DNA from: Brevinema andersonii
Lineage (GTDB): Bacteria > Spirochaetota > DYKD01
Reading direction: 5' to 3'
Assembly (NCBI GenBank): GCA_020722765.1
Contig: DYKD01000001.1
Coordinates: forward strand, 2,025-66,024
DNA length: 64,000 nucleotides
Notes under the pieces: generated by a model
What the model saw: only the letters and a program-made list of their open reading frames with translations
Database searches by the model: none
What the model was told of the DNA's origin: nothing
Shown here: one piece after another, positions 112 through 27,234 of the stretch
Layout: each line of letters opens with the position of its first letter
Numbering within the stretch: position 1 is the first letter of the stretch
Translations under genes and position numbers: made by a program

Positions 112-591
112 TTAACTTAACAATTGGTAAAGTCTTTTGATCGCCATTCTTGCTGTACGATTCCGTATTGCAGCCCTGTTCCCTTTGAATTGATGCTTCT
201 CAACAATAATATCATGAGGCAAAGCATACGCAATAAAGACTGTTCCTACCGGCTTACTCGGGCTTCCGCCACCAGGTCCAGCAATACCTGTTACAGCCAT
301 TGAGACATCGCTATCCATAAGTTTTTTTACTCGTTCAGCCATAGCAAGCGCTGTTTCAGCACTTACAGCACCATGTTTATGCAGGATATCTCTAGGCACC
401 GAAAGAGTTTTCATTTTAATTTCTTCAGCATAAGATATGACCGAACCCAGAAAGTACTTCGAACTTCCCGCATTGTCAGTTATTTTTTTTGATATCAATC
501 CACCCGTACAGGATTCAGCACAAGAGAAAGAAAGATCCCTTTGAAGCAACAACGCATGAAGCTTTTTTACAGGATTAAAAATCATAACCAA
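112..591 (-). CDS. pncC: CinA C-terminal-domain protein (PncC-type NMN amidohydrolase family), standalone 159 aa
   Basis: Translation aligns along its full length to E. coli YgaD/PncC (AESCTGG...ITD.AGSS...HGAVS...AVSISGIAGP.GGS..KP.GTV). The upstream sequence is the end of another gene, so no MocF-like N-domain is fused. Confidence 0.7.
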   Translation of the reverse strand: MVMIFNPVKKLHALLLQRDLSFSCAESCTGGLISKKITDNAGSSKYFLGSVISYAEEIKMKTLSVPRDILHKHGAVSAETALAMAERVKKLMDSDVSMAVTGIAGPGGGSPSKPVGTVFIAYALPHDIIVEKHQFKGNRAAIRNRTARMAIKRLYQLLS

Positions 592-3466
592 TACTCAGGT
601 AACTTCTCCATTTTTCCAAAGGCAGGATGGAGTGGCCATCATAGGGTGTGGCATAATCAAAAATAATCTTCATATAGTTGAAAAAATTCATCCTAATACC
701 TATTCCAAGGCCACTTTTTATAGAATCGAGATAAAGGATATCTTTGGAATATCTGGCAAAAAGCGTTGTTGTAGGATTATCCCAAACAGAACCGAAATCC
801 CAAAAAAGAACACCCGTCATATTTCTAAGCAACAATGGGATTGGCCATGAAAATCTAATCGCATCAATGAAGGGAAATCTATATTCAAATTTTACCAAGG
901 TCATATTGAGACCTTTAAACACATCATAATTATATCCCCTTATGGAATCAAGTCCGCCTATATAAAACGGTTGATGGATCGCATCTTTACCGACAATAGA
1001 AGCGAAGGTGAGACGCGCTGCGATGGCTGAAGTACGGCTTAAAGGGAAAAAGTGTCTGGCATCAAGATAAATTCTCTGGAATTCCCAAAAATAAGCAGTG
1101 ACTTTCGGAGCAAAATCATACCATAAGGAGAAATAAGATCCTTTAATGAAATAGTTTCCATTGAAAAGAAGGTTATTATATTCATATCCCAGGGAAAAAA
1201 TATAACTATCAGAATAAATATTCTCGGAAGTTCCCTTATCATACTTTTCTTCATAATTCATATATGTGTTTCTTATGGAAAAACCCGAATACCTGGAAAA
1301 AGGATACGAAGCGTTAAGAAGCGCTCCCGTACGTCTTTTAAAATAGATATCATAATTTGTATAACTGTCGATCCAATTGATATAGTAATCTTTTTTATTA
1401 TATGCACCAACACCAATATTCATCCTGAACTTCTGATAAAGATAGAAAAAGTTAAAATTAAGATCATTTTGCTTGGTATAAAAATTCCCATCAACCTGGA
1501 CTCTGTGAGAACCGATCATGTCTGACCCTTCAAAATAGACAGAACCAAGGAACTGGGAATAATCCGAATAACCTAGATACATATTTACAAAATCAGGAGA
1601 GAACCTGCATTTTGCCTTATCCATCCGGTCTGAAGCCGGTGAATATATGGATTGTGGCAATGACTGGAAATAGTTAGTTGCAGAAGAAAACAAGGTTTTA
1701 AGCGGATGGCTAATTACGGGAGCATTCGTCAAATCCAATATGCAGATATCTTGGCCTACTTTATTATAAAAAGCAAAAACAAGCTTGTCGCTCTTAGGAG
1801 ACCAGGAGGGATCCATGGCTCCACCAATGACATCTGTTAACTGTTTTTCAGAAGCATCCTTCAAATCATGAAGGAAAATATTAGGGATACCGTTTACGTA
1901 AGAGACGTAGGCCATTTTTTTGCCATCAGGAGAGACCTCAGGAGAGCTTTTTAAGTGAGGACTAAAAATGACTTTACTTAACCCGGTTCCATCAGGGAAA
2001 ATGCAAAAAATATCATATTGATCAGCCCAAATGCTTTTGTCACGGTTGGATACAAAATAAATCTTGTCGTCAACAGCCCAAAAAGGCTGGCCATCAAAGA
2101 ACTCGTCCTCAAAAAGCCTGACCATACTTCCATCTTCAATTCTTATGACATAAAGATCTGTCTTCCCTTTTTTCGTGCCACTGAACACGATTTGGGAGGA
2201 ATCAGGGGAGAAAGCACCTGAAAAGATCCTGTCCATACCTGGGGAGAGGACCTTATGAATCTTCTTTTTCTTCAAATCATAGATATTCAGCCTATCCTGT
2301 GCACCACTGGTGGATACAAAAAGAAGAAATCTACCATTGGATGAAATACAAAGCTTATTGACTTCTGAATGGAGCTCTTCAAACTTAGTACTGGTTGTCC
2401 CTCTAATCACGGTTTTCCTGAATTCTGGTTCTTTTAGATCAACAGAAACAATTTCATTGACAAGCTTCCCATCCGTGAAAAAAAAGACATTTTGCCCGTC
2501 TTTAGAGAAAACAGGCTTCGTATTTCTGAAGGAACCATCATCAAAATGGTGGGTCAAAAATTTGAATTGGGAATCCCAAATTTCCTTATAGGCAATATCC
2601 GGCAAATACTTTTTTTCAAGAAAAAGAGACCATTCCTTGCTGAGAGATTCCAGCCCTTTGCCTACAACAGAATTGAGCGAAGCGTTCATATCCCTTGAAA
2701 GCCGGAAATGTTTTAAAAGCTCACCCACTTTTTCGGGGCCATATTTATCAGCAATATAATTAAAGAAATCCTGCCCCCCCTTATAAACGAAATAATATTT
2801 GTAAGGAGGAAGAGACCCAAGGTTGTCCAATTCCATCAAAGTCGGCATCATCTTGTTAAGGACAGCATCACGGATGATCATATCCGTAGCCTTGTCCTTT
2901 CCAAGAGAAAAATATTCAGCAAGACCTTCCATGAACCAAAGAGGTGCAGAAAAAAGAAACGGTCTCATGAAAAGGGATTCCCAGAAATCCCCATAAAACA
3001 CATTATATTGGAAAGCATGTACGAGTTCATGCATGATAACATGACGGAAATCCTCATAGGATCCAGGGAAAGGGACAACTACCCTGTTTTTAAAAATTTC
3101 TGTAAAGCCCTCCACACCTGAAGGAAGAACCTCATAAGTTATCGTAGTGTTTCTAAAATCATTATGTCCGTTATAGATAAATATCGGGATGACATGAGTC
3201 AATTCAAATTTCATTTGGTCACTGATGATCGCATGGGAGTATTCTGCGATGGAGGCCGCATACCTGGCAACAGACTCATTCCCTTTGTCATAATAAATAT
3301 CAAAATGGGCTGTCTTAAGGATTTGCCAGTCATATACATGATAAGTAACACGATTTGCAGCAAAAAGAGGAATCGTAAGGATAGGAATCAGGAATATTAC
3401 AATCCTGATAATGTGATTACCGGGGGGAGATAATCTTAAATTCATTCTTTTTCCCTGTTGAGCCAC
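575..3466 (-). CDS. Outer-membrane multidomain protein: N-terminal HExxH zinc metallopeptidase-like domain, PD40/TolB-like β-propeller repeats, C-terminal Omp85 (surface antigen D15-type) β-barrel
   Basis: N-terminal hydrophobic signal/anchor. HELVHAFQ motif (gluzincin-like). Repeated SPDG/SPDS/FSPD propeller motifs. C-terminal region carries FYIGGLDSIRGYNYDVF (the Omp85 'GG..RGY' motif) and ends in an aromatic residue (…SIGYDF), typical of an OMP last strand. Exact start uncertain (M at 3466 or the internal M at 3445). Confidence 0.6.
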   Translation of the reverse strand: MAQQGKRMNLRLSPPGNHIIRIVIFLIPILTIPLFAANRVTYHVYDWQILKTAHFDIYYDKGNESVARYAASIAEYSHAIISDQMKFELTHVIPIFIYNGHNDFRNTTITYEVLPSGVEGFTEIFKNRVVVPFPGSYEDFRHVIMHELVHAFQYNVFYGDFWESLFMRPFLFSAPLWFMEGLAEYFSLGKDKATDMIIRDAVLNKMMPTLMELDNLGSLPPYKYYFVYKGGQDFFNYIADKYGPEKVGELLKHFRLSRDMNASLNSVVGKGLESLSKEWSLFLEKKYLPDIAYKEIWDSQFKFLTHHFDDGSFRNTKPVFSKDGQNVFFFTDGKLVNEIVSVDLKEPEFRKTVIRGTTSTKFEELHSEVNKLCISSNGRFLLFVSTSGAQDRLNIYDLKKKKIHKVLSPGMDRIFSGAFSPDSSQIVFSGTKKGKTDLYVIRIEDGSMVRLFEDEFFDGQPFWAVDDKIYFVSNRDKSIWADQYDIFCIFPDGTGLSKVIFSPHLKSSPEVSPDGKKMAYVSYVNGIPNIFLHDLKDASEKQLTDVIGGAMDPSWSPKSDKLVFAFYNKVGQDICILDLTNAPVISHPLKTLFSSATNYFQSLPQSIYSPASDRMDKAKCRFSPDFVNMYLGYSDYSQFLGSVYFEGSDMIGSHRVQVDGNFYTKQNDLNFNFFYLYQKFRMNIGVGAYNKKDYYINWIDSYTNYDIYFKRRTGALLNASYPFSRYSGFSIRNTYMNYEEKYDKGTSENIYSDSYIFSLGYEYNNLLFNGNYFIKGSYFSLWYDFAPKVTAYFWEFQRIYLDARHFFPLSRTSAIAARLTFASIVGKDAIHQPFYIGGLDSIRGYNYDVFKGLNMTLVKFEYRFPFIDAIRFSWPIPLLLRNMTGVLFWDFGSVWDNPTTTLFARYSKDILYLDSIKSGLGIGIRMNFFNYMKIIFDYATPYDGHSILPLEKWRSYLSIGYDF

Positions 3467-4502
3467 CCGAATACTGTTGAAAGTCCATCTTCCTTATCTT
3501 ATTCCTCAAATCCTCTTTCTCATTCTTCATTTCACTGACAAGATCAGAAAGAGTATAAACGTTATGAAGGGCTTTTTGGGAATAACCAAGCAGTTCATCC
3601 GTTGTGCCTTTGAGCTTGTCATCCTCAACCTTACGGAGAGATTCAATACGTGCACGGATGAAGAAATAAACAACTAAAAGAAGAAGAATGGCATTAACGA
3701 AAACAAGTATCTGCATCAATAGATTGAAAGACCTAATCATAACAATGGTTTGAATGTTTTCTATGGAATCCTGCGCAGAAAATGAGATATATTTTTTCTT
3801 TGTAATGAAAACATCCTTGAACCCGGGCCTATCCAGTTCGTTAAGAACCTTATCATCCGTAATGGACAATGATGCTGGTGCCATAAAAACAATTTTGCCA
3901 TTTTGGGAAAGAAACAAGGCAAAGTCATCACCTAACGAAAGTTTTTCCAGAAATGCATCCAGGGTTGTAAAGAGCCTCACATAACCTATGCCCAAACCAA
4001 ACGCATTATAAAGGGGGGCAGTGACAGAAAGCATGTACTGGTTATATTCCTTCATATAAAAAATGCCATAAACAGGTTTATTTAACTGGAAAAGGGAATA
4101 AGCATTCATTGACCCCATTACAGAGTAATCGGTTGAAAGGAAGAGTTTTCCGGATTTATCATAAAGGGATAGCAGTTTGACACCAGGAAAACTGTCTTTC
4201 AGATAATTGAGATGTTTTTGAAGTAAAGTGACATCACTATTCAAAACATATTGAAGCAGGCTTGCCTTGACGATATTATCACTGGAAATAGAAGAATAGA
4301 TGCTATTCTGAAGCTGTATGAACTGTCTAAAATGGGAAACCACTTCATGATATTTTCGTTCAAGACGTTCATTATTCATCTTTGTCAACATTGTAATTGG
4401 CAAAACCAGAGAGAGGATAAAAAGCATAAGCAAAAATAAAAAAATGTTTCTGTTCAGGTTCTTGTCCATTTCTACTTCTTCAAAGTATCGTGTATACGAC
4501 AC
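3417..4502 (-). CDS. Membrane sensor-like protein (TM – ~230 aa extracytoplasmic domain – TM – short coiled-coil tail), no output domain
   Basis: Two hydrophobic helices (IFLFLLMLFILSLVLPITML and LMQILVFVNAILLLLVVYFFI) flank a soluble domain. C-terminal K/E-rich helix. Overlaps both neighbours, suggesting translational coupling. Confidence 0.5.
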   Translation of the reverse strand: MSYTRYFEEVEMDKNLNRNIFLFLLMLFILSLVLPITMLTKMNNERLERKYHEVVSHFRQFIQLQNSIYSSISSDNIVKASLLQYVLNSDVTLLQKHLNYLKDSFPGVKLLSLYDKSGKLFLSTDYSVMGSMNAYSLFQLNKPVYGIFYMKEYNQYMLSVTAPLYNAFGLGIGYVRLFTTLDAFLEKLSLGDDFALFLSQNGKIVFMAPASLSITDDKVLNELDRPGFKDVFITKKKYISFSAQDSIENIQTIVMIRSFNLLMQILVFVNAILLLLVVYFFIRARIESLRKVEDDKLKGTTDELLGYSQKALHNVYTLSDLVSEMKNEKEDLRNKIRKMDFQQYSGGSTGKKNEFKIISPR

Positions 4503-7500
4503 CGGATTGACCTATCTGCCCGATGACAATATTTTTGTATTTATTTGATGCCTTCATGTTCTTATAGGTTGACAGGTCTCCTGCGCGTCCTTTGATAAGG
4601 ACAACCATCACATCTCCCACCAAAGCAGAAGATCTCGTACTTGGCTGGACCGTCCTGTTCATGGAAGCAAACTCAACAAACTTGTTGAAATAGTCATTTA
4701 AATCAGCAGAACTGCCAAGGGCATTATAAGACATTGCTATGGCATTGACAGCCTGCATTTCAGCATCAAAAATACTATACTGGTTCAATAACTTTACCAT
4801 GCTTTTGGATGGCATGAGCAAGGATTTCCGCCTGTTTATCACAGAAGGTTCCAAGACATCATTAAGTGCGGATATCAGGGAGACATAGCTAGGGCTTCCA
4901 AGATAATATCTTGAAAGTTCAAGAAGCGTATCTCCTTCTTTTTGGTCGAAAGGAGCAAAGAAAACCGCTTTTTCAGATGGAGAGGTCACACGCCGTGGAC
5001 CAGACCGAACTACAGCCATAGGAACATAAACTTTTTTCTCAGCTTTCAGACGTTCAATTTCTTGTTGCAATCTTGCGATCTGAGCCTTTAATTCAGGATC
5101 TCCTGCCTGAGAAACCTGGATCAAATCAGCTTCTGATGCAGTCACTTGAGGTATCAATTTCACAGGAATCTTAATAGATGTCTCGTTTTTAGCTAGATCC
5201 ATAACACTCAAAGTAAGATTGTTTTCCCCAGCATTCAAAGGGACTTGCACTTTGAAAGTTTTATCAGTAGGATTGAACTGCCCTGCAATATTTCCTGGAG
5301 TCACCACAACCCTATCAAAATTCCTGTCTTCGATGGTTCCCTTTATGATCAATGGCGTAGCATTTACGACAGGAGGGATAGAGTCTATTTTGATCTTGGG
5401 GGGAGTGTCATCAAAAAAGAGTATGACATCTTTTTTCATGGTTCCACCCATCTTATCAGAAAGGACTATCTGATATTCATGCTTGTCTTTTGTTACTGGC
5501 GCATAGACCTGAAAAGTATTACTCTTGAAATCAACTGATGCCCGGATATTTCCTGGCATCAAAACAATATCCTTAAGATTTGGCTCAGAAAAACGTCCTG
5601 TAAGAAGAGCCCTTTTTAGTGAGGTATATCTGTTATAGTCATTTAATGAAAACTTTGATACTTCAGTGGAATAATAAATGTTAAAAACGTCAAAACTTTT
5701 CTGATTGCTATTGTTGACAATATAAGCGGTCAGGATGTTCTCTCCTTCCTTAAGATCCAGCTTTGCAGAAAAAGCCTGTTTGACAATATCAGGAGTTGCC
5801 CGGATATAACCTTCGGCACGATTATTTGTGATGATGATTTCCTTAAGATTTTTCTCGGAAAAAGTACCTGTCAAGAAATAAGAAGCCTCATTAACCTTGT
5901 TATTGCTTTTATTCATGACAACAACCGGACCACCACCAGAATAGACAATAGGTTTCAAATTATACGTTGTCTTATTACCAACCATATCGTACGCATCCAA
6001 GGAGAACCTGTTTTCTCCCTGGACAAGTGTTATTGTAGGTTTAAAATCATATATATAGTTCTTATCTGGCACCGGAGTAAAAGTGACTTCAATATTTCCT
6101 GGATTCAAGACAAGCCTGTTCAAAGAATAATCTCTGACCTGACCCACAATCCCTACTGATGCTGTAACAGGTTTATCTGGAATAGATACAGCAATAAATT
6201 CAGGTTTATCGGTATCATATATGGTGGTTCTTGCAATTGTTGTTTTTTGACCTGCAATGTCTTCAGCAGTGACTTCCACCTTGTTCATACCACCTCTTAA
6301 AGTGATCGGTGCAGAAAACGACCGTTTTACCCTATCAATCTCTCCTCCACCAAGCAGTTCCCCATTATTGGCAATTGTAATTCGAATCAGATTCATCTCA
6401 TTGTAACGTCCTGAAATAACAAACTCAGGGTCTTTTACCGAATCAGGAATCTCATCAAGAGTAATTGTGGGAGGAACTGTATCAACAATAACTGGCAAGT
6501 TGGCAAAATTCACATTATTAGCCTTGTCTTTCACTGTCAGACGGATATAATAGGTTCCATTGATCAGACGCGACACATCAAAAACAGCTAACTTATCATT
6601 TAAAACCTTTACAGAAGATGCCGGGCTCATCCCCGCAGTGGAATAGTCATTGAGTATTTCAGACTTAGAATCTATGACGAATGAGGCAATATCCTGGAAA
6701 CTATAGGATGTACCAAGAATCTCAATAATACCTGCTTTCGAATATGAAGTCAAAGGGCTGAGATACGCTTCTGGTATAACCTTATCCATACGTGCAATTC
6801 CACCACCATCAGTGGCAAACCATACAAAATTACCGTTAATGGCAATATCTCCGACAGAATCTTCAGGAAGCCCGGTAGCCGCAGAAAAAATATCCCACTT
6901 TCCAGCAACTTTATCGAACTTATTAACTCCTGCAAAAGTACCAATCCAAAGGATTTTTCCGTCAATCGTCAAACACTGGATATTATCATCAACCAGACCA
7001 GCAGATGTATTATAATTCTGAAAGGAATCATCAAGCTTGTTAAGACGTGAAAGTCCCCCTCCCATTGTACCGGCCCATATAAATTCTCCATCAACAGCAA
7101 TGGAACTGACCTTATTGAAGGCCAACCCATCCTGAGGCAAATAGCTTTTCCAAAAATCAATACTTTTGTCATAAGCAGAAAGTCCATCATCGGTAGCGGC
7201 CCAGATGTATTGTCCGTCAAGAGCTAGAGCGTTTACATTGTTTCCAGCCAGTCCATTCAGTACAGAATAACCTTTCCACCGGCTGGTAGTCGGATCAAAA
7301 AGCAAGACACCCCATCTCCGTGTTGCAATCCAGATCTGAGAACCGTCAACAACAATATCAGTGACATAGTTATCAGGTAATTTCTTATTAAGGTCGTATA
7401 AATCGAAATTCTTGACAGAATAATCCTTCTTACTGACCATGGACAGTCCATTAGGAGTCCCTACCCATATATTATTCTGGTCATAGGATATAGCTGTAAT

Positions 7501-7767
7501 ATAATTATCACGGAGTCCTTCTACCTTTACAACCTTGTCATCCTTGATGTTGTAGATATTCAGCTTGTCCGCTGTACCTACATAAATGAAATTACCATCG
7601 ATTTTTATCTTTTTGACAAACCTATGCGATATCTTGTTATCTGTTACAACAAAAAAATCTCCTGCAGCTTTGATATAATTATAGCTCATGACAAATACAA
7701 ATCCTACAAGTATGAGAAAGAAAATCAGGATATTGGAAATGATATGCAAGGAGCGTTTCATTGTCAT
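4480..7767 (-). CDS. Periplasmic/surface protein with N-terminal TM anchor, two-component-regulator-type β-propeller repeats, Ig-like domains, coiled coil and LysM-like segment
   Basis: N-terminal hydrophobic helix. Multiple '(I/F)W(I/V/A)(G/A)T' repeats (IWVGT, IWIATRR, IWAATDDG, IWAGTMGG, LWIGTFAG, VWFATDGG), typical of the Reg_prop β-propeller. Middle region of Ig-like β-rich repeats (PVT/TVT motifs). LKAQIARLQQEIERLKAEKK coiled coil. GDTLLELSRYYLGSPSYVSLISALNDV resembles LysM. Confidence 0.6.
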   Translation of the reverse strand: MTMKRSLHIISNILIFFLILVGFVFVMSYNYIKAAGDFFVVTDNKISHRFVKKIKIDGNFIYVGTADKLNIYNIKDDKVVKVEGLRDNYITAISYDQNNIWVGTPNGLSMVSKKDYSVKNFDLYDLNKKLPDNYVTDIVVDGSQIWIATRRWGVLLFDPTTSRWKGYSVLNGLAGNNVNALALDGQYIWAATDDGLSAYDKSIDFWKSYLPQDGLAFNKVSSIAVDGEFIWAGTMGGGLSRLNKLDDSFQNYNTSAGLVDDNIQCLTIDGKILWIGTFAGVNKFDKVAGKWDIFSAATGLPEDSVGDIAINGNFVWFATDGGGIARMDKVIPEAYLSPLTSYSKAGIIEILGTSYSFQDIASFVIDSKSEILNDYSTAGMSPASSVKVLNDKLAVFDVSRLINGTYYIRLTVKDKANNVNFANLPVIVDTVPPTITLDEIPDSVKDPEFVISGRYNEMNLIRITIANNGELLGGGEIDRVKRSFSAPITLRGGMNKVEVTAEDIAGQKTTIARTTIYDTDKPEFIAVSIPDKPVTASVGIVGQVRDYSLNRLVLNPGNIEVTFTPVPDKNYIYDFKPTITLVQGENRFSLDAYDMVGNKTTYNLKPIVYSGGGPVVVMNKSNNKVNEASYFLTGTFSEKNLKEIIITNNRAEGYIRATPDIVKQAFSAKLDLKEGENILTAYIVNNSNQKSFDVFNIYYSTEVSKFSLNDYNRYTSLKRALLTGRFSEPNLKDIVLMPGNIRASVDFKSNTFQVYAPVTKDKHEYQIVLSDKMGGTMKKDVILFFDDTPPKIKIDSIPPVVNATPLIIKGTIEDRNFDRVVVTPGNIAGQFNPTDKTFKVQVPLNAGENNLTLSVMDLAKNETSIKIPVKLIPQVTASEADLIQVSQAGDPELKAQIARLQQEIERLKAEKKVYVPMAVVRSGPRRVTSPSEKAVFFAPFDQKEGDTLLELSRYYLGSPSYVSLISALNDVLEPSVINRRKSLLMPSKSMVKLLNQYSIFDAEMQAVNAIAMSYNALGSSADLNDYFNKFVEFASMNRTVQPSTRSSALVGDVMVVLIKGRAGDLSTYKNMKASNKYKNIVIGQIGQSGVVYTIL

Positions 7768-10700
7768 TGTGCCTTTTTCAACTGTTCTAACTTATATTTT
7801 GCACGCTGGATATATTTCTTAGCCTGGTCATCGTTAGGGAACATCTGAAGGACCTTTTCCCACTGTGCGATAGCTTCCTCCAACTGATCATTTCTGTACA
7901 ACCGAATCCCTTCAAACATGTACTTCTGGGCTTCATCCTTGTTTCTGGCAGAATTAGCCTGCTCGAGTTTTGCCTTTTCACGAAGGGCCCTTTCACGGAG
8001 GGAGAAAGCATCCTTATAGGGATTTCTTAAGTCAAGTACTTTGTTGAATTCCTGGACCGCTAACCCATATTTTTGCTGATTAAAATAGTCAGATCCTCTG
8101 CCATAAAAATTCTTTGCCTGATTCTCGATTTGTGCTGTGACTTCATTGAGTTTTGCGGACGCAGCCTTATTATCAGGGGTTGCGTTCTTGACAGCTTGAA
8201 GACGGCTTTCCGCTCTTCGTAACTGCCCATCATCTATATAATTAAGAGCTTCCTGATACCACTGCTGGGCCTGTTTCCGACCTTCTGCAATGGATTGGTC
8301 ATATTTGTTTTTTGCATAATTGTCTTTTTCATTAAGTTTCATTATTTGCCCGAAAATTTCAGCGGAATCCGCATACTGACCATCATTGAAAGCCGTATTT
8401 CCACGGTTAAGGAAATCATTGGCAGTCTGTGCTAACGCACGACGTTCCAAAATATCCTCATTTCCAGCATCATACTTGAGGACTTCGTTAAAAGCGGTGA
8501 TTGAATCCAGATATTTACCAGAATCAAAAGAACTGATCCCTTTCGACCGGTTATCATTGATGATGTTATTGATGGATGTATTGACACGTGCGAGAAACTC
8601 CTTAGGCTTGTCATAACGAGGATCTATCTCAATAGCTTTTTTGAAATTTGTCCTTGCTGTAAGAAGATCACCTTTTTTGAAAGCTTCGACACCTATGTTA
8701 TAGTTCTTATTCCCGATTTCCTGCTGCTGGCGTTTCGCATATTCAATGTATTTATCAACAAACTCATTGTTTGGGTCAACGGTCTTGATATCAGTCCATA
8801 TCTTTATGGCTTCATCATATCTTCTGTTCTTAAAGGCAATAATACCTTCTGTAAATTTGGAAGCAATCATCTCTTCCTTGTTGATTTTTGCCATGTTTTC
8901 ATCTGCAAGTTTCATCTGAACGGCAGCCTCTTTCCCTTCAGCTGAATTAGGATCAAGTTCAACAGCAAGTTGGAAGAATTTTTTTGCAGTCTCATAATCA
9001 CGATTGATAAAATAATCCTTACCCTTGTTCAGGTGTTCCTGTTGCATATAAAGGCTCTTGTTTTTCTCATAGAACTCTTCAGCACGGGCAATATATTCCC
9101 TGGCAGTCTGATAATCAGGATCGATATCCAGGACTTTTTTGAAACTGTCAATCGCCTTTACATATTCTTTGGCATTAAACCGGTCAATACCCTGTTTCAT
9201 ATTCTGATCGGTCTTTTCCTTCAACCTATTACGACATTTTTCAATCCCGGATTTCGCAATAGTGTTACCTGGGTCCAAAAGGAGTGTCTGCCTGTATTCC
9301 TTAAGCGCTTCCGAAAATCTGTCTTGTTTGAAAAAGCTGTCCCCCTGGTTATTATACAAGGCAATCGAATCCTTAACAAGCGCATTAGCCCTATTTAAAA
9401 ATTCCTTGGCGATAGCATTATTTTCATCAATTTCCAGGACTTTTCTGAAATTCTGAATAGCATCACCCAAGCGATTATCACGCAATGCCACCTTACCTGC
9501 CTCAAGCGGGGTATCAATAAGGCTTGCATATTCCTGTTGCACTTTTTCAAGATACTGCTGGGCCTCCTTATAATCAGGAAAGGTATTTACAGCGCGTTCA
9601 AATTCAACTGATGCAAGTTTCAATTTCTTGTTTTGATAGTAGGCAAGTCCGTTCTTAAAATAGTTTTCAGCATCTTTCTTACGTTCCCCTATTGACTTGC
9701 TCTCTTTCTGGTTCTTGCGCGCACTTTCAAGATATTGAAGAACATTAGTACTATCGGAAACAATCGATAATGACTTCTGGAAACTGACTATCGCATCATC
9801 CCACTTCTCCTCACGATAAGACATAAGCCCTTCTTCAAACAGCGCTTTAGCATCCGCTTGGCGTTGCTCTTCCTTCTCTTCTGCCGCAAAAACATCACGC
9901 AACTGAAGTTCATTCTTGGCCTTCAGTTCCAAAGAAGGCTTATGTTCAGGATTCAAAGCCAGTGCCGTATTGACCTTTGCTAATGATTCCCTGTATCGGC
10001 CAATCTTATTGAACGCAAGTGCCTCATTATAATAATTCCTCACATCTTTCTCAGTCTGTTTTTTCAAGGTCTCAATTTCAGCGATAGCTTCCTTGTTTTC
10101 AGGATTCACATTCAAAACATCGCGATAGGCCTGTATGGCACCACCGAAATCACTTTGATCCTGAAGCTGTTTTGCTTTTGCAAGGTTAAATTTGATGAGT
10201 TGCCTTTCTTCATCAGACATCCATTGCTCTGAAGCCAGATATCTCCTGCAATTATCAATATAATACTGGGCAGTAGGATCATTGCGAATCTCAAGAACTT
10301 TCTGGAAATATTTCATGGCATTGCGATAATCCCTGTTATTATAAAAGACAGTCCCTTTATAGAAAAAATCAAGTTCGGCTCCGGCCGTTGTTGATTCTTT
10401 AAGTTTATAAATCAGTGAAAGTTGGAAATCACTGTTATCCATAGCCGTCTGGTTCATACTCGAACAGAATTTGATATCCTTGACGTTCAGGGAAATCCCT
10501 CCGGAAAAATGCATATTACGGATACCACCGAGCACACTCAAATAATCAAAGACATTGATCTGCAATCCAGCAGACCAGTTCAGTTGGGAAGCGTTAAAAT
10601 CATCCAAAATCAACTTACTTGCATCTGCAAGAATATCAATCCTATTTTTCAAAAAAGTCAGTTTAACACCAGTCAGTAGATTGATCGGGATACCCATATC

Positions 10701-11303
10701 GACCGTGTCAAAAGTATATTTTACAGGTAGAACATTTTGGACATTCAAGCCAAAACTGAAAAAAGGGGAAGGTTTCAAAAGAGCGCTTATATCCATCTCT
10801 ACATCATTACTTGGCTTATCACTAATGTTCTGATTTAAAAGTTTAATGGTTGATCCAACAAAAAATTTCTTCTTAAAGCCTTTGCTATAAGCAAAGGAAA
10901 GCAGATATTGTTTGGCAGAAAACTGTTCACGCTTTGCAGTAGGAGAATCATAACGTGTAAGGTTGTCTATGGAAAAATAGAAAAGCGAAAGTCCGAAAGC
11001 GTTCTCATAGGTCAATGGATTCACAAAACCAGTATAGATTATGGACATGCTTGAAATAAAATTATTATATATTTGAAAAAGGATTTCCCTGGATGAAATC
11101 TGTGACAAGCCTGCAGGATTCCAATAGATCGCAGAAGCATCATCCGCCATAGCAGTAAAAGAACCGCCTAGAGCTGATGCTTTCCCGCCAACACTGAATC
11201 CCAATAAAGACGGCAGGGAGCCTCCTGTTTCTGGATAGGCAGAGGATCCCATTATTGAAAAACCGATAAGGACACAAATGGTTATTCTTGTTACGAAAGT
11301 CAT
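7764..11303 (-). CDS. Fusion protein: N-terminal FadL/PorV-like outer-membrane β-barrel domain (~300 aa) + ~870 aa TPR-repeat region
   Basis: Signal peptide, then an AIYWNPAGL motif (the NPA hatch motif of FadL/OMPP1/PorV-type barrels) and β-strand-like alternating-hydrophobic segments. The remainder is dozens of 34-aa TPR-like units (Y..A...F.KAIEIDP... patterns) and ends with the protein terminus. Confidence 0.5.
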   Translation of the reverse strand: MTFVTRITICVLIGFSIMGSSAYPETGGSLPSLLGFSVGGKASALGGSFTAMADDASAIYWNPAGLSQISSREILFQIYNNFISSMSIIYTGFVNPLTYENAFGLSLFYFSIDNLTRYDSPTAKREQFSAKQYLLSFAYSKGFKKKFFVGSTIKLLNQNISDKPSNDVEMDISALLKPSPFFSFGLNVQNVLPVKYTFDTVDMGIPINLLTGVKLTFLKNRIDILADASKLILDDFNASQLNWSAGLQINVFDYLSVLGGIRNMHFSGGISLNVKDIKFCSSMNQTAMDNSDFQLSLIYKLKESTTAGAELDFFYKGTVFYNNRDYRNAMKYFQKVLEIRNDPTAQYYIDNCRRYLASEQWMSDEERQLIKFNLAKAKQLQDQSDFGGAIQAYRDVLNVNPENKEAIAEIETLKKQTEKDVRNYYNEALAFNKIGRYRESLAKVNTALALNPEHKPSLELKAKNELQLRDVFAAEEKEEQRQADAKALFEEGLMSYREEKWDDAIVSFQKSLSIVSDSTNVLQYLESARKNQKESKSIGERKKDAENYFKNGLAYYQNKKLKLASVEFERAVNTFPDYKEAQQYLEKVQQEYASLIDTPLEAGKVALRDNRLGDAIQNFRKVLEIDENNAIAKEFLNRANALVKDSIALYNNQGDSFFKQDRFSEALKEYRQTLLLDPGNTIAKSGIEKCRNRLKEKTDQNMKQGIDRFNAKEYVKAIDSFKKVLDIDPDYQTAREYIARAEEFYEKNKSLYMQQEHLNKGKDYFINRDYETAKKFFQLAVELDPNSAEGKEAAVQMKLADENMAKINKEEMIASKFTEGIIAFKNRRYDEAIKIWTDIKTVDPNNEFVDKYIEYAKRQQQEIGNKNYNIGVEAFKKGDLLTARTNFKKAIEIDPRYDKPKEFLARVNTSINNIINDNRSKGISSFDSGKYLDSITAFNEVLKYDAGNEDILERRALAQTANDFLNRGNTAFNDGQYADSAEIFGQIMKLNEKDNYAKNKYDQSIAEGRKQAQQWYQEALNYIDDGQLRRAESRLQAVKNATPDNKAASAKLNEVTAQIENQAKNFYGRGSDYFNQQKYGLAVQEFNKVLDLRNPYKDAFSLRERALREKAKLEQANSARNKDEAQKYMFEGIRLYRNDQLEEAIAQWEKVLQMFPNDDQAKKYIQRAKYKLEQLKKAQ

Positions 11304-12550
11304 CAGTCTTCCGCCAACGCTGATTCGTCATCAGCTCTTTTATTGGACTTGTTCTGAAAAGAATCCGGGGTTGATGATGTGATTTTTGCAATCGTCTGAC
11401 GGATCAAAGTGATATCTTCTTTTGAGCTCTCAGCCATCTTCGAAGTCAGTTCTGCAGTACTTCTCAAAGTTTTGACCATTTCAGACACAGTACCAGTAAT
11501 GACTTCCTCTCTCTTAAGTTTTTCTTTCTTGTATTTCAGATACACATTTTTATAGATCGCCATAGAAGCCAGAACAAGTATGACAATAAGAAACACGACA
11601 AAAAGATATACGAAAACGTTCAACACGATCTTTGTGACAGAGACGGGTAAAAAGAGATAAGCAGCCGTAAATGTCCCCCCGAACGCAGAATAGACAACCC
11701 TATAATCAGAACCTTCATGCGAGACTTTTGCAGGGAAACCGTTTTTCGACATGCTAAGGCGCAGCATATTCGCCGCATTCCTGTTCAGATCCTTTGACTG
11801 GTAATATGCCAAAGTGTTATCTGCAGCCAGGATCATCATGGTCGTGTTGAACTGTCCAGTCAACATGGAAAACTTGAATATTTCAGGTTTACATACGAGG
11901 TGAATAACCGCTTTAGGCTTCCCTTCTAGGGCAATTCTTTTCAGGATACTCACATAGGCATCCCCTTTATAGGAAAAGGAAGTCAGAAGAATTGGCTCTT
12001 TGAAATCAGGGAATTTTGTTGTGATTGGTTCCTTCATGACTGTCAAAAGAGGCTGCTTCTGTAGGTCGTATATTTCAAATCCGAAAATAGAGGGATCCTC
12101 CTTAAGAAATTTTTCAATGAAAAACTTCAACTCAAACCTCTTGTCATCCGATTTTGCAAAAAGGTAATTTTTAAAAACCTGGGAATCTGAAAGATCCGCA
12201 AGGAACTTATCATAAGAGACTAAAAAATCTGATGCCCTTTTTTCATTGATACGTGCATATTCCCTGACTTCCTTAAGACGACTGTCCATAAACAACCTAT
12301 CCGCCAGTGTATAAAAGACCGAAGGCTCTGCCCTTTTTACCTGCAAGGCTGTTCCTCTTGCACTAACAGGCCTTATTTTTTTGCCTTGCACTATATCCAA
12401 TATTTCCTTGCTCATTGTTTTGATCTGGACAGCCATATCATCAGGAACGACAGCAGGTAACTTATTATTAAGGGCAAGGTAACCAGTTCCAAGAGCAAGC
12501 GCTATAAACAGCAAAAGATATTTCAGTATGGAAAGAATTATGTTTTTCAC
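11303..12550 (-). CDS. Membrane sensor-like protein (TM – ~270 aa extracytoplasmic domain – TM – coiled-coil tail); apparent paralogue of 3417..4502
   Basis: Two TM helices flank a soluble domain. The cytoplasmic tail has the SEMVK…SKEDITLIR motif, comparable to SEMKNEKEDLR in the 361-aa protein. 1-nt overlap with the upstream gene. Confidence 0.5.
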   Translation of the reverse strand: MKNIILSILKYLLLFIALALGTGYLALNNKLPAVVPDDMAVQIKTMSKEILDIVQGKKIRPVSARGTALQVKRAEPSVFYTLADRLFMDSRLKEVREYARINEKRASDFLVSYDKFLADLSDSQVFKNYLFAKSDDKRFELKFFIEKFLKEDPSIFGFEIYDLQKQPLLTVMKEPITTKFPDFKEPILLTSFSYKGDAYVSILKRIALEGKPKAVIHLVCKPEIFKFSMLTGQFNTTMMILAADNTLAYYQSKDLNRNAANMLRLSMSKNGFPAKVSHEGSDYRVVYSAFGGTFTAAYLFLPVSVTKIVLNVFVYLFVVFLIVILVLASMAIYKNVYLKYKKEKLKREEVITGTVSEMVKTLRSTAELTSKMAESSKEDITLIRQTIAKITSSTPDSFQNKSNKRADDESALAED

Positions 12551-12610: not shown

Positions 12611-13267
12611 TCAGTTTTTTAACAGCTTAGAGATAGAATCATAATACTTCTGTGCCGGGAAAACAACTGGATAAAGCTCCTTAATACGCTCTTTTTTATC
12701 AAAATACCAAGCAGCCACAGCAAGATTGAAACGGATCTCCTCATCTGGTTTGAAAGAAAAAGCCTGGTTCAGTTTATCAAAAGCCCGTTCATAATCCTTT
12801 TTTTTCATTGCAAGAAGCCCAATATTATTGAGCAAATCAGCATCTGCGGGGTTGATTTCCAAGGCACGGGAGTAATATCTGGCAGCTAACTCTGTCTCAT
12901 TCCTCAAATTATAGATATTCCCCAAATTGACCAAACTTGCAAAATCATTCGTATTAAAGACCGATGTAGAGACAAAAGCCTCTAAAGCCTCATTATATCT
13001 GCCTGCCAATACCCTTGAAACGCCAAGATTATAGTATGACTCAGGGTTTTGCCTGTCAAGTTTTGTGACCATAACCAGGTACTTTTCCGCATTAGTCATG
13101 TCCTTTTTTTCTGCGAAAAGGACACCTAAACGCATGATGATATTGACCCGATCAGGATAATTTGAAACTATTGATTTATAGTTTTCAATTAAGGCATCCT
13201 GAGCAAAAATCATTGGTACAAAAACAAAAGAAAAAATGATGGTAAAAAAAGCCAATAACTGTTTCAT
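12611..13267 (-). CDS. Secreted TPR-repeat protein (218 aa)
   Basis: N-terminal signal peptide (FFTIIFSFVFVPMIFAQD), then several TPR-like units (YNLGVSRVLAGRYNEALEAF, LGNIYNLRNETELAARYYSRALEINP). Confidence 0.6.
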   Translation of the reverse strand: MKQLLAFFTIIFSFVFVPMIFAQDALIENYKSIVSNYPDRVNIIMRLGVLFAEKKDMTNAEKYLVMVTKLDRQNPESYYNLGVSRVLAGRYNEALEAFVSTSVFNTNDFASLVNLGNIYNLRNETELAARYYSRALEINPADADLLNNIGLLAMKKKDYERAFDKLNQAFSFKPDEEIRFNLAVAAWYFDKKERIKELYPVVFPAQKYYDSISKLLKN

Positions 13268-13391
13268 ATAGTGATATTATACTATAAATATGTTGAAATA
13301 TCAACTTTTTTTTAGCTAAAAAGAGTGAAAGCAGAGAGGGCACCGGACTTATCCTGCGATAGTGTATAAAGAAGTCAAGAAAGACAGGCTT

Positions 13392-15647
13392 TTACTTGAT
13401 CAAACTTATCGCGCCAGACTTTTCCTCAACCTGAAGAAGAGTCCATTTGCCTTTTTTTGTCGTAACATAAGAAATAGGAAGTTTTACAATTTGGGGGAAA
13501 CTTTGTACAAAAACCTCAGACATTAATATTTTATATGGTTCAATACTTGTCCGCTTGCCAGTTGCAAGATTATAATCCAACCCCATTCTTACCTCAAGAT
13601 CTGTTGAAATGAACTCCATATCCCTGATTTTCAAGATCTGGTTTTCATAATAGAACAACGAATTAATCTGGTCATAAAGGATGATATCTTTTAATAGGTC
13701 ATTGCCTATCTTTTTAGCAATGATATCCTGATAGGATGTGTCTTGTATGATGCCTTTTTTAAACCTAAGCTTCCCTGTAACGAGGCCTATTCCCTTTGAG
13801 CCAAGATCCACACTGCATTCCAAATCACCCTTGCCAGAAATACGTGAGGGAGTTGGCCCTAAAAGAGCCTGATATATTTCACTGACATCAACCGATGAAG
13901 CGATAGCGTGTATGAAGCCTTTGTTTGCTGAAACGTCGTAAGACACAGACGCATCAACACGTCCCAGATAGGCATCAACAACGATGTCTGGCAAAATGAT
14001 CCTATGATTGCTGAATAAGACTGATGATCGCAGATTAGAGCATTCAAATTTCTGAAATCCAAGTTTTTGGTCCTGCAGTGAACCTTTGATATACGGCTGT
14101 TTTGTCCTAATGTTATAATGTCCAGCAAGTTGCCCTGAAAGTCCCATACGGACTTGTGAAAGTGACAGGTTACGGAAAGCCGCATGGAGGGATAGCTCAT
14201 CCCCTGCCAAATCAAAATCACAGACCCAGGTCCCCCCCAAAGCGATGAATGAAAGTTGATCCCCTTTGGCAAGTCCTGGAGTGATGGTCGATCTCAGACG
14301 AAAATCAGACAACAGCATAGAACCAAAAGAAACACCCAAAAAAGAAGCATTCACAAGGACATTATAGTCTTTCATTGGATCCTGTTTTTCTGATTTCAAT
14401 ATCCGGCCATCCCATTTTATCTGATCCAAACTGATCTTATCACCTTTGACGTCGATATCCAGTTCAAGGGGTTCATTTCTGATATTGCCGGAAAATCCTT
14501 GAATATGAAAAACATCCTTACCAGATAACACAGTTGATGAAAATTTCTGTACTGCATTATTTCTCATCGTCAAAGTAAACGAGCTGAAACCAACCACATT
14601 TGACAGGAGATTGACAACATTGATCCTCTCTGAAAAAGCGTTTGCCTGTTCAATGATCCATGTCTTCTCTTTAAAATTTCCACTGATCCTTGCCTGAAAA
14701 GAAAGATTTCCAGATGCCTCAGGCTTGATCATGGAAAGCGGGAACGAAGTAGAACTAAAATCCATGGTATAAAAAAATCTCTGGAAATCATGGACATAAG
14801 CCGAAAAACTGAACTCCGTATCCTTGAAAAATCCTGAACTCCCTACAGCAGGAATTTCCACAATTTGGTCCGCATAACGAACAATAGCCATCCCATCCCA
14901 TTTTATGTCTGGACCAACAGCTTTTATCCTGATAGGAATCCTGGCAAAATCCGTAAAATGGGAAGTGATTGAAAACCATTCGAAATGTTTTTTGATCTCT
15001 GGTCTTGTAAATGATGCTTTGGCAAATGCGGAAATCATCCTGTTTGAAACGACAGCTTCAAGGTTTATAGTGGCAAAATCCTGAAAGTCTTCTGCTTCTG
15101 CGAATATGACTGTTTTTGAATCCTTGCGAGAGATGTTTATCTTATCAACCTGAAAAAAAGATGTTTTTGACTGAATTGCCAGGTCGCGGATAATGACACT
15201 TTCCACATCCACTGAAACAAGAGACTCGGATTGCCTCTCTTTCTGGGAGGGGTTGAATTTCCTGGCAATCTCCTTGAAGAAAAGCATATTATCATCAGTC
15301 GAGGTTGATATCTGAGCGAAAACACCTTGTATCTGGATATCTTCCAAAGTTATCTTTCTTTTTAAAAGATCCTTGATATTCAATCCAACCCGGGTTGAGG
15401 AAACAGTCAGGGGAATCTTGTTCTTATTGTGCAGGGAAACGTTCTTTACAGTAACACCCCTGAATATGTCAAGTGTCAGGCTTTCCAGACCGACTTCAGA
15501 ACCAACGACCTTTGTCAGGATTTCCTGCGCACGAAGACGAATATCTTTGAGATAATAGAAATTAATAAAAACAGTAAGCCCAATCAATAAAAGGAGTCCG
15601 CTTGAGGCAAGGAGAAGGATTATCTTGAATGGTCTGGAGAGTCTCAT
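13392..15647 (-). CDS. AsmA-family protein (AsmA/TamB-like outer-membrane assembly/lipid transport family)
   Basis: N-terminal TM anchor followed by LK..IR.RAQEIL.KVVGSEVGLESLTLDIFRGVTVKNVSL, matching the AsmA N-terminal pattern. A long β-rich region follows. 4-nt ATGA overlap with the upstream regulator gene. Confidence 0.5.
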   Translation of the reverse strand: MRLSRPFKIILLLASSGLLLLIGLTVFINFYYLKDIRLRAQEILTKVVGSEVGLESLTLDIFRGVTVKNVSLHNKNKIPLTVSSTRVGLNIKDLLKRKITLEDIQIQGVFAQISTSTDDNMLFFKEIARKFNPSQKERQSESLVSVDVESVIIRDLAIQSKTSFFQVDKINISRKDSKTVIFAEAEDFQDFATINLEAVVSNRMISAFAKASFTRPEIKKHFEWFSITSHFTDFARIPIRIKAVGPDIKWDGMAIVRYADQIVEIPAVGSSGFFKDTEFSFSAYVHDFQRFFYTMDFSSTSFPLSMIKPEASGNLSFQARISGNFKEKTWIIEQANAFSERINVVNLLSNVVGFSSFTLTMRNNAVQKFSSTVLSGKDVFHIQGFSGNIRNEPLELDIDVKGDKISLDQIKWDGRILKSEKQDPMKDYNVLVNASFLGVSFGSMLLSDFRLRSTITPGLAKGDQLSFIALGGTWVCDFDLAGDELSLHAAFRNLSLSQVRMGLSGQLAGHYNIRTKQPYIKGSLQDQKLGFQKFECSNLRSSVLFSNHRIILPDIVVDAYLGRVDASVSYDVSANKGFIHAIASSVDVSEIYQALLGPTPSRISGKGDLECSVDLGSKGIGLVTGKLRFKKGIIQDTSYQDIIAKKIGNDLLKDIILYDQINSLFYYENQILKIRDMEFISTDLEVRMGLDYNLATGKRTSIEPYKILMSEVFVQSFPQIVKLPISYVTTKKGKWTLLQVEEKSGAISLIK

Positions 15648-16885
15648 TTCTGAGCTGACTTTTCCCTCTTACGTTCCATCTCTTCCATTTTCTTGTAATA
15701 TTCCACCTGTTTCTTGAGTTCTTCAAGATCATTACAGTGGATTTTATTGTTGACTAAGGAGAATTTCTTGTTTGTAAAAAGCTGGTTGATAAGATCCTCC
15801 CCTTCACGTGGGGAAAAGCCTAACATCTTAATGAGGTCAGAAGGTGTCAGGTCGAAAGAATGCATTGCCTTATGTTCAATGGGGATGCGTATCTTTTCAA
15901 CCTGGGTGAGGAGAGTATCATAAATACGTGCGATGGGCGTCTTGATCAGAAGGTTTTCCAACTGTTTATATGCCAACCAAATCCGTTCACTGAGGAGTTG
16001 GATGAGGCGAACAGCAATCTGTGGTTTCTGAACAACCATAATCTCGAAGTTCTGCTTATTGACAGCAAGGAGCAAAACATCACCCGAAGCGATAGCAGAA
16101 GCTGTGCGTGGCTTATTTTCAAGCAAAGCCATTTCACCGAAAATATCACTCTCTTTCAAAGTTGCCAGAAGGATTTCCTTATCATTTATCAGTTTTGTAA
16201 TCTGGACTTTTCCCTGTTGGATGATGTAAAGCTCTTCCCCCGGCTCATTTTCGGAAAAAATCATGGTATCATTTGAAAACGTCTTGGTCAAAGAATTGTC
16301 TGGCAGATCTATTTTTGCCCCCCCCCCTGCAGATGTATCAACACCCAGAGACTGAAGCCGGACTGTTGCAGTTGACAGGAATTTGCCATTCTGACAATAC
16401 TTGAGATATTTCTTATAGCAATGGATTGCATAATTGAATTTCTTCTGTTTGAAGTAATATTCCCCAGTTGCAAAAAGACCTTCAATGCTCTCTTCCTGCA
16501 CATCATTCTTGAAAGTGAGCCGTGCAATCGCTGAATCATAGAAACGGAGACTCTTGGAGAACTGCTTGATTATCTTCATTGCAACAGGAGCGTTTTTCTG
16601 GATAAGTGTAGCAAACTGATCCCGCTTGACAGCAATCAGGCTTACATCCGTAAGCGCAACAGCGGATTCAAGCCTATTATGGGAACTCATGCAAGAGACA
16701 ACACCGAAAAAATCACCTGGATTGCAGATCGAAGGCATGGACGTGTCTTCTATGACATTGATTTCCCTAATCAGCTGGACTTTACCCTGACGAACTATAT
16801 AGAATTCACCAGAATCCGACTTGTCTTCTATGGTAATGAATGTATTTTGCTTGAAGTTCACTAGTCCGAATGCGGTTTCTGCCAT
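15644..16885 (-). CDS. Crp/Fnr-family regulator with two tandem cyclic-nucleotide-binding domains and C-terminal HTH
   Basis: Two CAP_ED-like segments (FYIVRQGKVQLIREI… and LYIIQQGKVQITKL…GEMALL). C-terminal LTPSDLIKMLGFSPREGEDLINQL resembles the Crp HTH. First gene of the minus-strand gene string. Confidence 0.65.
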   Translation of the reverse strand: MAETAFGLVNFKQNTFITIEDKSDSGEFYIVRQGKVQLIREINVIEDTSMPSICNPGDFFGVVSCMSSHNRLESAVALTDVSLIAVKRDQFATLIQKNAPVAMKIIKQFSKSLRFYDSAIARLTFKNDVQEESIEGLFATGEYYFKQKKFNYAIHCYKKYLKYCQNGKFLSTATVRLQSLGVDTSAGGGAKIDLPDNSLTKTFSNDTMIFSENEPGEELYIIQQGKVQITKLINDKEILLATLKESDIFGEMALLENKPRTASAIASGDVLLLAVNKQNFEIMVVQKPQIAVRLIQLLSERIWLAYKQLENLLIKTPIARIYDTLLTQVEKIRIPIEHKAMHSFDLTPSDLIKMLGFSPREGEDLINQLFTNKKFSLVNNKIHCNDLEELKKQVEYYKKMEEMERKREKSAQK

Positions 16886-26667: not shown

Positions 26668-27234
26668 TTACATGTAAAATCCCATTCCCTTCAATATCCT
26701 GTATAAGAGGTTCAAAGGCAATCCCACAACATTAAAATAATCTCCTTCTATTTTCTTGATGAACATCGAAGAGAAATCCTGGATACCGTACGCACCTGCT
26801 TTGTCCATTGGTTGGTGTGTACGGATATAATTCGAAATTTCCTGTTCGGTCAGTTTGTCAAAAAACACCTTGGTCTTCTCTATGGCTGTTGCGATTTTTG
26901 CTCCCTTAATAAGACATATCCCAGAAAAAACAATATGAGTCCTGTTATTCAAAAGCCTAAGCATCTCAAAGGCATGGGCTTCATCATCAGGCTTCCCCAA
27001 TATCCTGTTCTTACAAAAAACCAGAGTGTCAACACCCAGTATATATCTGTCTGGAAAATCCGAAGCTATTGCAAGAGCTTTCTTCCTGGCATTGTGCTCA
27101 ACCGTAGCAGAAGGAGACTTCAACGTCTCCTCCTCTACATGAGCAGGAATAGCTTCAAAAGGGATTCCTACTGTCTCTAAAAGGTGTTTTCGTCTGGGCG
27201 ATGCAGAAGCAAGGATGATCTTATCTTTCAACAT
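26668..27234 (-). CDS. maf: Maf-like nucleoside triphosphate pyrophosphatase (septum formation protein Maf)
   Basis: ILASASPRRK.LL…G…F motif and overall Maf length and pattern. Confidence 0.85.
   Translation of the reverse strand: MLKDKIILASASPRRKHLLETVGIPFEAIPAHVEEETLKSPSATVEHNARKKALAIASDFPDRYILGVDTLVFCKNRILGKPDDEAHAFEMLRLLNNRTHIVFSGICLIKGAKIATAIEKTKVFFDKLTEQEISNYIRTHQPMDKAGAYGIQDFSSMFIKKIEGDYFNVVGLPLNLLYRILKGMGFYM

Follow-up and report, generated by a model that had tools for sequence, protein, structure and literature searches.

We analysed a 64,000-nucleotide stretch of DNA from Brevinema andersonii (contig DYKD01000001.1, positions 2,025 to 66,024 of the forward strand; hereafter the window), in which the open reading frame (ORF) at positions 7764–11303 encodes an outer-membrane barrel covalently joined to a very long helical repeat arm. 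The ORF starts with ATG and lies on the minus strand, which the original prediction had left unstated. Based on the ORF call, Pfam and NCBIfam searches and AlphaFold2 models, its 1179 codons specify a signal peptide, a hatch, a 14-stranded barrel and a 16-unit arm resembling tetratricopeptide repeats (TPRs). We favour, with a probability of roughly 0.55, the view that the product is an outer-membrane-anchored scaffold or tether that spans the periplasm within a conserved envelope module. As far as sequence data can tell, the features that would set it apart are the fixed length of the 16-unit arm of 51-residue repeats and the conserved five-gene context. The original prediction of a FadL/PorV-type barrel and a TPR-type array in one polypeptide was borne out, and the fusion proved to be conserved across relatives.

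The barrel and the helical arm

All features of the protein are encoded on the minus strand, and the G+C content is about 0.40 across the region without a compositional break. The first 22 residues (MTFVTRITICVLIGFSIMGSSA|YPE; putative cleavage …GSSA|YPE; 11238–11303) read like a type I signal peptide without a conserved lipobox cysteine; the hydrophobic segment covers aa 1–19, and the N-terminal region is variable among orthologues. Lipoprotein anchoring was considered and rejected, as the only cysteine (C10) is too near the N-terminus, has no lipobox context and is not conserved. According to the model and to conservation, the signal peptide is followed by a hatch or plug segment of short helices (aa 27–70; 11094–11225) containing the NPAGL motif (aa 62–66; 11106–11120), the counterpart of the FadL NPA hatch motif. 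The model and its fold matches place the transmembrane β-barrel at aa 71–302 (10398–11093), with 14 long strands and a small hairpin at 195–204. The remainder, aa 307–1179 (7767–10385), is an all-helical arm of 16 units of about 51 aa, as delimited by Pfam, the model and autocorrelation.

The N-terminal domain is a genuine 14-stranded barrel of the FadL superfamily and belongs to its PorV/PorQ/UPF0164 branch, since the predicted fold is a barrel and the NPAGL motif is not isolated: profile, phmmer and structural comparisons all extend the family evidence beyond it. AlphaFold2, run for this domain on a 53-sequence family alignment, returned a mean predicted local distance difference test score (pLDDT) of 89.3 and a predicted template modelling score (pTM) of 0.83. 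The model shows a helical segment (aa 32–68) followed by 14 long strands (72–301), that is, a FadL-type barrel with the N-terminal region in the pore, and so bears out the β-barrel fold that had been proposed from the NPAGL motif. The top Foldseek match was PorV from the translocon of the T9SS (type IX secretion system; 8gl6_F, E 4e-12, TM 0.72; 6h3i_F, TM 0.71), to which sequence identity is only 16–18%. FadL, TodX and CymD ranked after PorV, BamG was also among the best structural matches, and the next fold after the FadL-type matches, OmpG, fell to 18.1. With aa 1–310 as query, phmmer retrieved 7,510 of 1.84 billion representatives at E ≤ 1e-3, of which 1,528 reached E ≤ 1e-10.

Comparison with family profiles supported the branch assignment and narrowed it. 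The NCBIfam PorV/PorQ family NF033709 matched with 100.7 bits, above its cut-off of 90 (aa 34–242 on profile positions 7–229 of 326), and Pfam UPF0164 (PF03687) marginally exceeded its gathering score (22.9 vs 21.4; aa 37–113 on profile positions 47–121 of 325), with scores of 27–40 bits for P0068, P0095 and other relatives. The narrower Toluene_X and PorV profiles were not passed: Pfam Toluene_X (PF03349) reached 19.7 against a gathering score of 29.7 and covered only the 40 residues around the NPA motif (aa 36–75), Pfam PorV (PF19572) had no match in the protein, and the equivalog cut-offs were missed widely for PorV (NF033710, 48.9 vs 250), PorQ (NF033711, 67.3 vs 220) and PorV2 (NF052325, 42.9 vs 325).

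Within the 53-sequence alignment, N62-P63-A64-G65 is invariant, so that the conserved NPA motif found in the N-terminal hatch of FadL/TodX transporters is present here as well. Within the N-terminal domain, conservation is highest in the hatch, which has a majority fraction of 0.70 compared with 0.53 for the barrel strands. The barrel itself is modelled as small, with about 230 aa of strands and short loops. Its last strand, DFQLSLIYKLK, carries the invariant Y299 and is probably an internal β-signal.

The arm (873 aa) is helical throughout in the full-length model. Local confidence is mostly high (pLDDT 80–90), but the pTM is 0.32 and the global shape of the arm is therefore unreliable. TPR_2 matched with 192.1 bits in 12 stretches and TPR_1 with 155.4 bits in 9 stretches; many other TPR models also match the arm, including TPR_Slam on aa 365–404 (39.6 vs 35.2). 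BLOSUM autocorrelation peaked at lags of 51 and 102, with a unit spacing that was mostly 51 (range 46–64), and the full-length model shows seventeen helices of 14 residues in alternation with others about 30 residues long. Each of the 16 units, with the pattern …G…F….Y..A…F..vL.iDP.N..A…l…, is made up of a TPR A/B helix pair with a DPxN turn at its end and of a spacer helix that merges into helix A of the following unit. The array is thus of TPR type, as had been proposed, but it is not the near-continuous solenoid of the original prediction: a contiguous 34-residue TPR period was not found, and the period is 51. The units share a bona fide TPR A/B pair with canonical arrays such as the CTPR, OGT and SPY superhelices, which are built from 34-residue repeats, whereas here every TPR is followed by an extra helix. 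The arm is hence a string of three-helix units, for which the canonical superhelical geometry cannot be assumed. A PDB sequence search with the protein found designed consensus TPRs only, and a fold search with the full-length model returned generic long TPR scaffolds only, at TM <0.1.

Relatives and gene neighbourhood

The same architecture was found in ten protein clusters and in loci from metagenomes and metagenome-assembled genomes (MAGs), in answer to the question whether homologous fusions exist in other genomes. Eight clusters at 37–100% identity have lengths of 1171–1182 aa and align end to end. The other two, P0068 with 1186 aa and P0106 with 1176 aa, are more distant and can likewise be aligned from one end to the other. 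Five MAG contigs carry further copies, as do the metagenome contigs L015 and L017, where the protein has 1179 and 1197 aa, respectively. Relatives at 34–37% identity come from MAGs titled uncultured Spirochaetia or Spirochaetes bacterium, and no source names exist for the family. A profile search for more full-length members, which was limited by the word index, gave none that were new. An assembly or frameshift artefact was rejected as the source of the fusion because orthologues of 1171–1197 aa occur on many independent contigs.

Across this class, length is held within about 2% (1171–1197 aa) while identity falls to about 25%. In most comparisons, conservation of the arm equals or exceeds that of the membrane barrel, with identities for barrel and arm of 21% vs 42% in P0008, 21% vs 40% in P0106, and 26% vs 25% in P0068. 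The most conserved segments are the hatch and repeat unit 1, which adjoins the barrel.

Fusions of this general kind are fairly common in the barrel family, and about a quarter of the barrel's close relatives are extended at the C-terminus. Among the 150 best representatives, 38 are proteins of more than 450 aa with an N-terminal barrel. In an independent metagenome sample, 17 of 73 complete barrel ORFs exceed this length. When 20 extended relatives were classified by Pfam, 15 were barrel–TPR proteins (507–1186 aa), three combined the barrel with fn3/immunoglobulin (Ig) domains, one with CarboxypepD_reg and OmpA, and one had no detectable extra domain. No separate barrel and TPR gene pairs of the 'Rosetta stone' kind were found in 80 metagenome loci. 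The 652-aa proteins P0009–P0011 are barrel–TPR fusions, yet their sources label them just "TPR repeat protein". In addition, the barrel of the shorter barrel–TPR fusions is often missing from precomputed Pfam lists. The joining of the same N-terminal barrel to CarboxypepD_reg and OmpA (peptidoglycan binding) or to fn3/Ig/DUF4352 domains was seen in P0081, P0088, P0096 and P0109, and in L065, L075 and L088. As a branch of the FadL superfamily, these barrels seem to serve generally as N-terminal anchors that fix periplasmic domains to the membrane.

For BcsC, PgaA, PelB and Slam, too, a barrel combined with TPRs is the usual plan, with the domains in inverse order. The architectures of PgaA and BcsC have been summarised (bioRxiv 10.1101/2025.01.03.631275). 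Closer precedents are the FadL-like proteins TP0548, TP0859 and TP0865 of Treponema pallidum, in which a C-terminal three-helix bundle with one TPR motif was assigned to the periplasm, and whose TPR domain the authors called unique among the Pfam FadL members they had searched (PMC8407342, PMC12369335). These UPF0164 proteins share with the Brevinema protein a spirochaetal origin, a 14-stranded FadL-type barrel, an N-terminal hatch with an NPA or NAA motif, and a helical C-terminal extension with a TPR motif placed in the periplasm (PMC8407342, PMC12369335). By the description in PMC8407342, one such three-helix bundle resembles one repeat unit of the arm in design. They differ in having a single bundle instead of 16 tandem units (873 aa), in their much larger, longer-looped barrels, and in their gene context, which is unlike the conserved four- to five-gene module found here. 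Given these published cases and the counts above, the statement that a covalent barrel–TPR fusion is unusual was too strong.

The gene (B in what follows) lies among four others on the minus strand. Directly upstream, partner A (415 aa; 11303–12550) is an inner-membrane protein with transmembrane segments at aa 4–22 and 308–326, a periplasmic domain with a weak dCache_1 match and a short cytoplasmic tail. Downstream lies partner C (1095 aa; 4480–7767), with an N-terminal signal or anchor, a Reg_prop propeller, and Big_13 and Glucodextran_B Ig-like domains. It is followed by partner D (361 aa; 3417–4502), an inner-membrane protein with transmembrane segments at aa 20–38 and 264–289 and a weak dCache_3-like periplasmic domain, and by partner E (963 aa; 575–3466), an outer-membrane protein with a signal peptide, Peptidase_MA_2, a PD40/TolB propeller and an Omp85 barrel ending in …SIGYDF. 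The stop codon of partner A overlaps the start of B in a TGATG, the start of partner C overlaps the stop of B in an ATGA, and the ORFs of E, D and C (575–3466, 3417–4502 and 4480–7767) overlap one another on the same strand. From this arrangement, B would be translationally coupled to its neighbours.

Partner C directly follows the gene in 11 of 11 distinct loci of the class of about 1180 aa, and a protein of about 390–440 aa with two transmembrane segments overlaps its start in every locus examined. Homologues of partner A were found at 26–31% identity in L011 and L012; sequence similarity is detectable only in closer relatives, and a BLASTP comparison of partner A with its positional counterpart in L003 was not significant. 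Counterparts of partner D (346–415 aa) lie downstream, and that of L012 has a weak dCache_1 match. Partner E comes next in the window, and so do its homologues, at 37–48% identity, in L003, L005, L009/L010 and L011. Inner-membrane sensor proteins also adjoin shorter barrel–TPR fusions in other lineages: a sCache-HAMP histidine kinase overlaps P0214, and a HAMP-SpoIIE protein follows P0009.

Several features of the partners were observed in passing. Partners A and D are paralogue-like, each with two transmembrane segments, a periplasmic domain of about 225–285 aa and a cytoplasmic tail of 70–90 aa without a recognisable output domain. Partner E is unusual in having Peptidase_MA_2 and a PD40/TolB (Tricorn-like) propeller where POTRA domains would be expected, together with a canonical β-signal (…SIGYDF). 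Homologues of partner C have a faint precomputed match to Pfam PF27332 'TP_0781', which is named after a T. pallidum locus and hints that Treponema may keep part of the module; a literature search for TP0780–TP0783 gave nothing informative.

Upstream of the module, three genes occupy the minus-strand region 12611–16885. They code for a secreted TPR protein of 218 aa, a protein of 751 aa whose N-terminus weakly resembles DUF748/TamB, and a protein of 413 aa with two domains for binding cyclic nucleotide monophosphates (cNMP). The 218-aa TPR protein has a counterpart at 42% identity upstream in L012 and a partial one in L011; neither the 751-aa nor the 413-aa gene was seen in distant loci. Genes for an AmiA-like N-acetylmuramoyl-L-alanine amidase (20097–21416, minus strand) and an OmpA/Pal-like peptidoglycan-binding protein (21613–22788, plus strand) are found some 9 kb away from the module. 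As a SpoIID-domain gene follows the Omp85 fusion in L009/L010, cell-wall genes recur near the module. A 1938-aa ORF near the end of the window (58174–63990, minus strand) has no NCBIfam match at E ≤ 1e-5, and very large ORFs stand beside the clusters of relatives (4137 aa in L008, 2118 aa in L011). Likewise, no NCBIfam match was obtained for ORFs of 529 aa (28809–30398, minus strand) and 758 aa (50551–52827, plus strand); the former lies directly downstream of a DegP/HtrA-type protease gene (27221–28807, minus strand), 1 nt apart.

Candidate roles in the envelope

In the mechanism that we favour, the protein would be exported by Sec, lose its type I signal peptide and fold over approximately aa 71–302 as a 14-stranded FadL-superfamily barrel, with the conserved N-terminal NPAG hatch sitting in its pore. 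In 14-strand barrels, both termini are periplasmic. The C-terminal arm should therefore be periplasmic, and its 873 residues in 16 three-helix units would project into the periplasm; as a rough estimate, the 16 units might extend over some 15–25 nm. There it would probably act as a protein-binding scaffold or tether of fixed length between the barrel and its co-translated partners, namely the periplasmic domains of A and D and the propeller/Ig protein C. The barrel may in addition dock laterally on the Omp85-family protein of the operon, in the way that PorV docks on SprA and BamG on BamA. Together, these proteins would form a trans-envelope module of Spirochaetota-like bacteria, which might serve envelope tethering, signalling from the outer to the inner membrane, or assembly or secretion; the barrel–arm protein would not belong to a T9SS.

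This scaffold role is suggested by the conserved length and sequence of the arm, by the coupling of the gene to two inner-membrane proteins and a propeller/Ig protein, and by the precedents for lateral partnership in the family. FadL-type barrels are lateral partners of large outer-membrane machines in the cases of PorV (6h3i/8gl6) and BamG (9n2d) (PMC12611786), and a periplasmic C-terminal TPR on spirochaetal FadL-like barrels likewise has precedent (PMC8407342, PMC12369335). Several points weigh against it. The interaction of the arm with its partners is something that we infer, and the low pTM of the full-length model leaves the shape and length of the arm unfixed, with fold matches for the arm confined to generic TPR proteins at TM <0.1. 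The upstream partner has no detectable homology in distant loci, where it is matched in size and topology only, and the Cache assignments of A and D are sub-threshold Pfam matches of 22.4 bits each. L008 and L012 lack the Omp85 gene at this position, so that docking of the barrel on Omp85 is not obligatory as judged by gene linkage. Finally, an invariant NPAG hatch would also be expected of a working FadL-type transporter.

That last point bears on the strongest competing explanation, a FadL-type importer with a hand-over arm. In this scheme, which we consider possible but unlikely, a hydrophobic nutrient would pass the hatch and a lateral opening, and the arm would pass it to, or recruit, acceptors in the periplasm or inner membrane. 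Import of this kind has been suggested for TP0548, TP0859 and TP0865 of T. pallidum (PMC8407342), whose UPF0164 family the protein just reaches by score (22.9 vs 21.4), and the invariant NPAG motif and the strong conservation of the hatch fit it. However, hatch and NPA are also kept in PorV and BamG, members that do not transport, and Toluene_X stayed under threshold over 40 residues. No FadL-like extracellular binding groove is evident in the model, as the barrel is small and its loops are short. The conserved module also contains no ABC, TRAP or lipid-handling gene, and a length-conserved arm of 16 units seems excessive for an adaptor, given the one three-helix unit of those in T. pallidum.

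Somewhat less probable again is a role as accessory of a non-canonical Omp85 machine, which overlaps with the scaffold role that we prefer. The barrel would dock on partner E and the arm would receive substrates as BamD does, so that one chain would combine BamG and BamD in the assembly or secretion of the propeller/Ig protein. The co-linear, overlapping Omp85 fusion in the window, L003, L005, L009/L010 and L011, the canonical C-terminal β-signal of partner E, and the TamB/DUF748-like gene upstream in the window are consistent with this idea. It is weakened by the loci L008 and L012, in which the Omp85 gene is not adjacent, and by the absence of any POTRA domain from the Pfam scan of partner E. 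The match of the arm to the BamD model TIGR03302 (27.7 vs 81.4) represents generic TPR similarity, and the barrel–Omp85 interaction is again one that we infer. BamG itself (9n2d_B, 9hj3_F and 9hjm_F), the FadL-family accessory barrel of the Bacteroidota BAM complex, has no TPR arm, and its TPR partner BamD is a separate lipoprotein; partner E here has a peptidase domain and a propeller in addition to lacking a detectable POTRA, and the Omp85 linkage is not invariant.

A T9SS component, in which a substrate shuttle resembling PorV would be joined to a TPR scaffold resembling PorW/SprE, was the frame of the original prediction; it did not stand up and is now very improbable in view of the equivalog hidden Markov models, the content of neighbouring genes in the window and the lineage of the relatives. 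The protein does exceed the NCBIfam PorV/PorQ family cut-off, and partner C has a near-threshold PorZ_N propeller match (26.3 vs 27), but this match overlaps the generic Reg_prop propeller, and the PorV, PorQ and PorV2 equivalogs and PF19572 all failed as described above. Among the 20 window ORFs scanned, none matched the T9SS families SprA/Sov, PorK/L/M/N or PorU, or Por_Secre_tail/CTD substrates, and only generic OmpA similarity to PorE was seen. The full-length relatives occur in Spirochaetia/Spirochaetes MAGs, and one paper treats T9SS as limited to the superphylum Fibrobacteres-Chlorobi-Bacteroidetes (bioRxiv 10.1101/2025.01.03.631275). Moreover, a PorV/PorQ-family protein of the spirochaete Brachyspira pilosicoli has been modelled as a FadL-like 14-strand barrel (bioRxiv 10.1101/2025.01.03.631275); such barrels thus occur in spirochaetes, and family membership does not imply T9SS. 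The likeness to PorV (6h3i_F, 8gl6_F; NF033709) lies in the family-level profile match, in the N-terminal region within the pore and in the expectation that both act as partner barrel of a larger machine and not as transporter. PorV differs in having no C-terminal extension, and the target has neither equivalog-level similarity to PorV/PorQ nor more than 16–18% identity to PorV, and no T9SS context was found for it in the window. As a separate observation, a 630-aa barrel–TPR fusion in L014 (5078–6970) lies between a Big_5 protein with a weak Por_Secre_tail match and an overlapping sCache-HAMP histidine kinase, an arrangement from which it follows that the same architecture can adjoin a T9SS substrate in T9SS-bearing lineages.

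Least probable of all is an exporter of exopolysaccharide or surface lipoproteins of the BcsC/PgaA/PelB or Slam type, with the TPRs guiding cargo to the pore: both building blocks are present, these systems likewise have an outer-membrane barrel covalently attached to a long TPR scaffold in the periplasm, which makes contact with partners there or in the inner membrane, and TPR_Slam exceeds its threshold on aa 365–404, but that match is one repeat among many generic TPR matches, and the exporter is ruled out by domain order (barrel first here, TPR N-terminal there), by strand number (14 strands with a hatch in the pore, unlike the open 16–18-strand porins or the DUF560 barrel of Slam) and by gene content, the module holding no synthase, glycosyltransferase or DUF560 gene, nor any of the polysaccharide synthases or surface lipoproteins with which those proteins work.

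Implications for spirochaete envelopes

Going beyond the scaffold role itself, we suggest tentatively that the module may be an undescribed envelope machine spanning the periplasm, in which the arm would serve as a ruler or tether of fixed length that couples an outer-membrane FadL-like/Omp85 pair to sensor-like proteins of the inner membrane. Such a machine might serve signalling from the outer to the inner membrane, or the assembly or secretion of the large Ig-domain protein. If so, the use of FadL-superfamily barrels as general partner barrels, known from PorV–SprA and BamG–BamA, would be extended to trans-envelope coupling; if none of this holds, the protein would be one more uncharacterised outer-membrane scaffold.

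The barrel branch bears putative periplasmic arms, mostly of TPR type, in a quarter of its members, most of which are now annotated only as "TPR repeat protein". Should the series that we propose be correct, the small "unique" TPR domains of the T. pallidum FadL-like vaccine candidates would represent the one-unit end of a range running from 1 to 16 units. The architecture of the spirochaete envelope is poorly understood, and the conserved length and sequence of the arm, together with its linkage to Cache-like and Omp85 proteins, offer a testable ruler or tether hypothesis for it.

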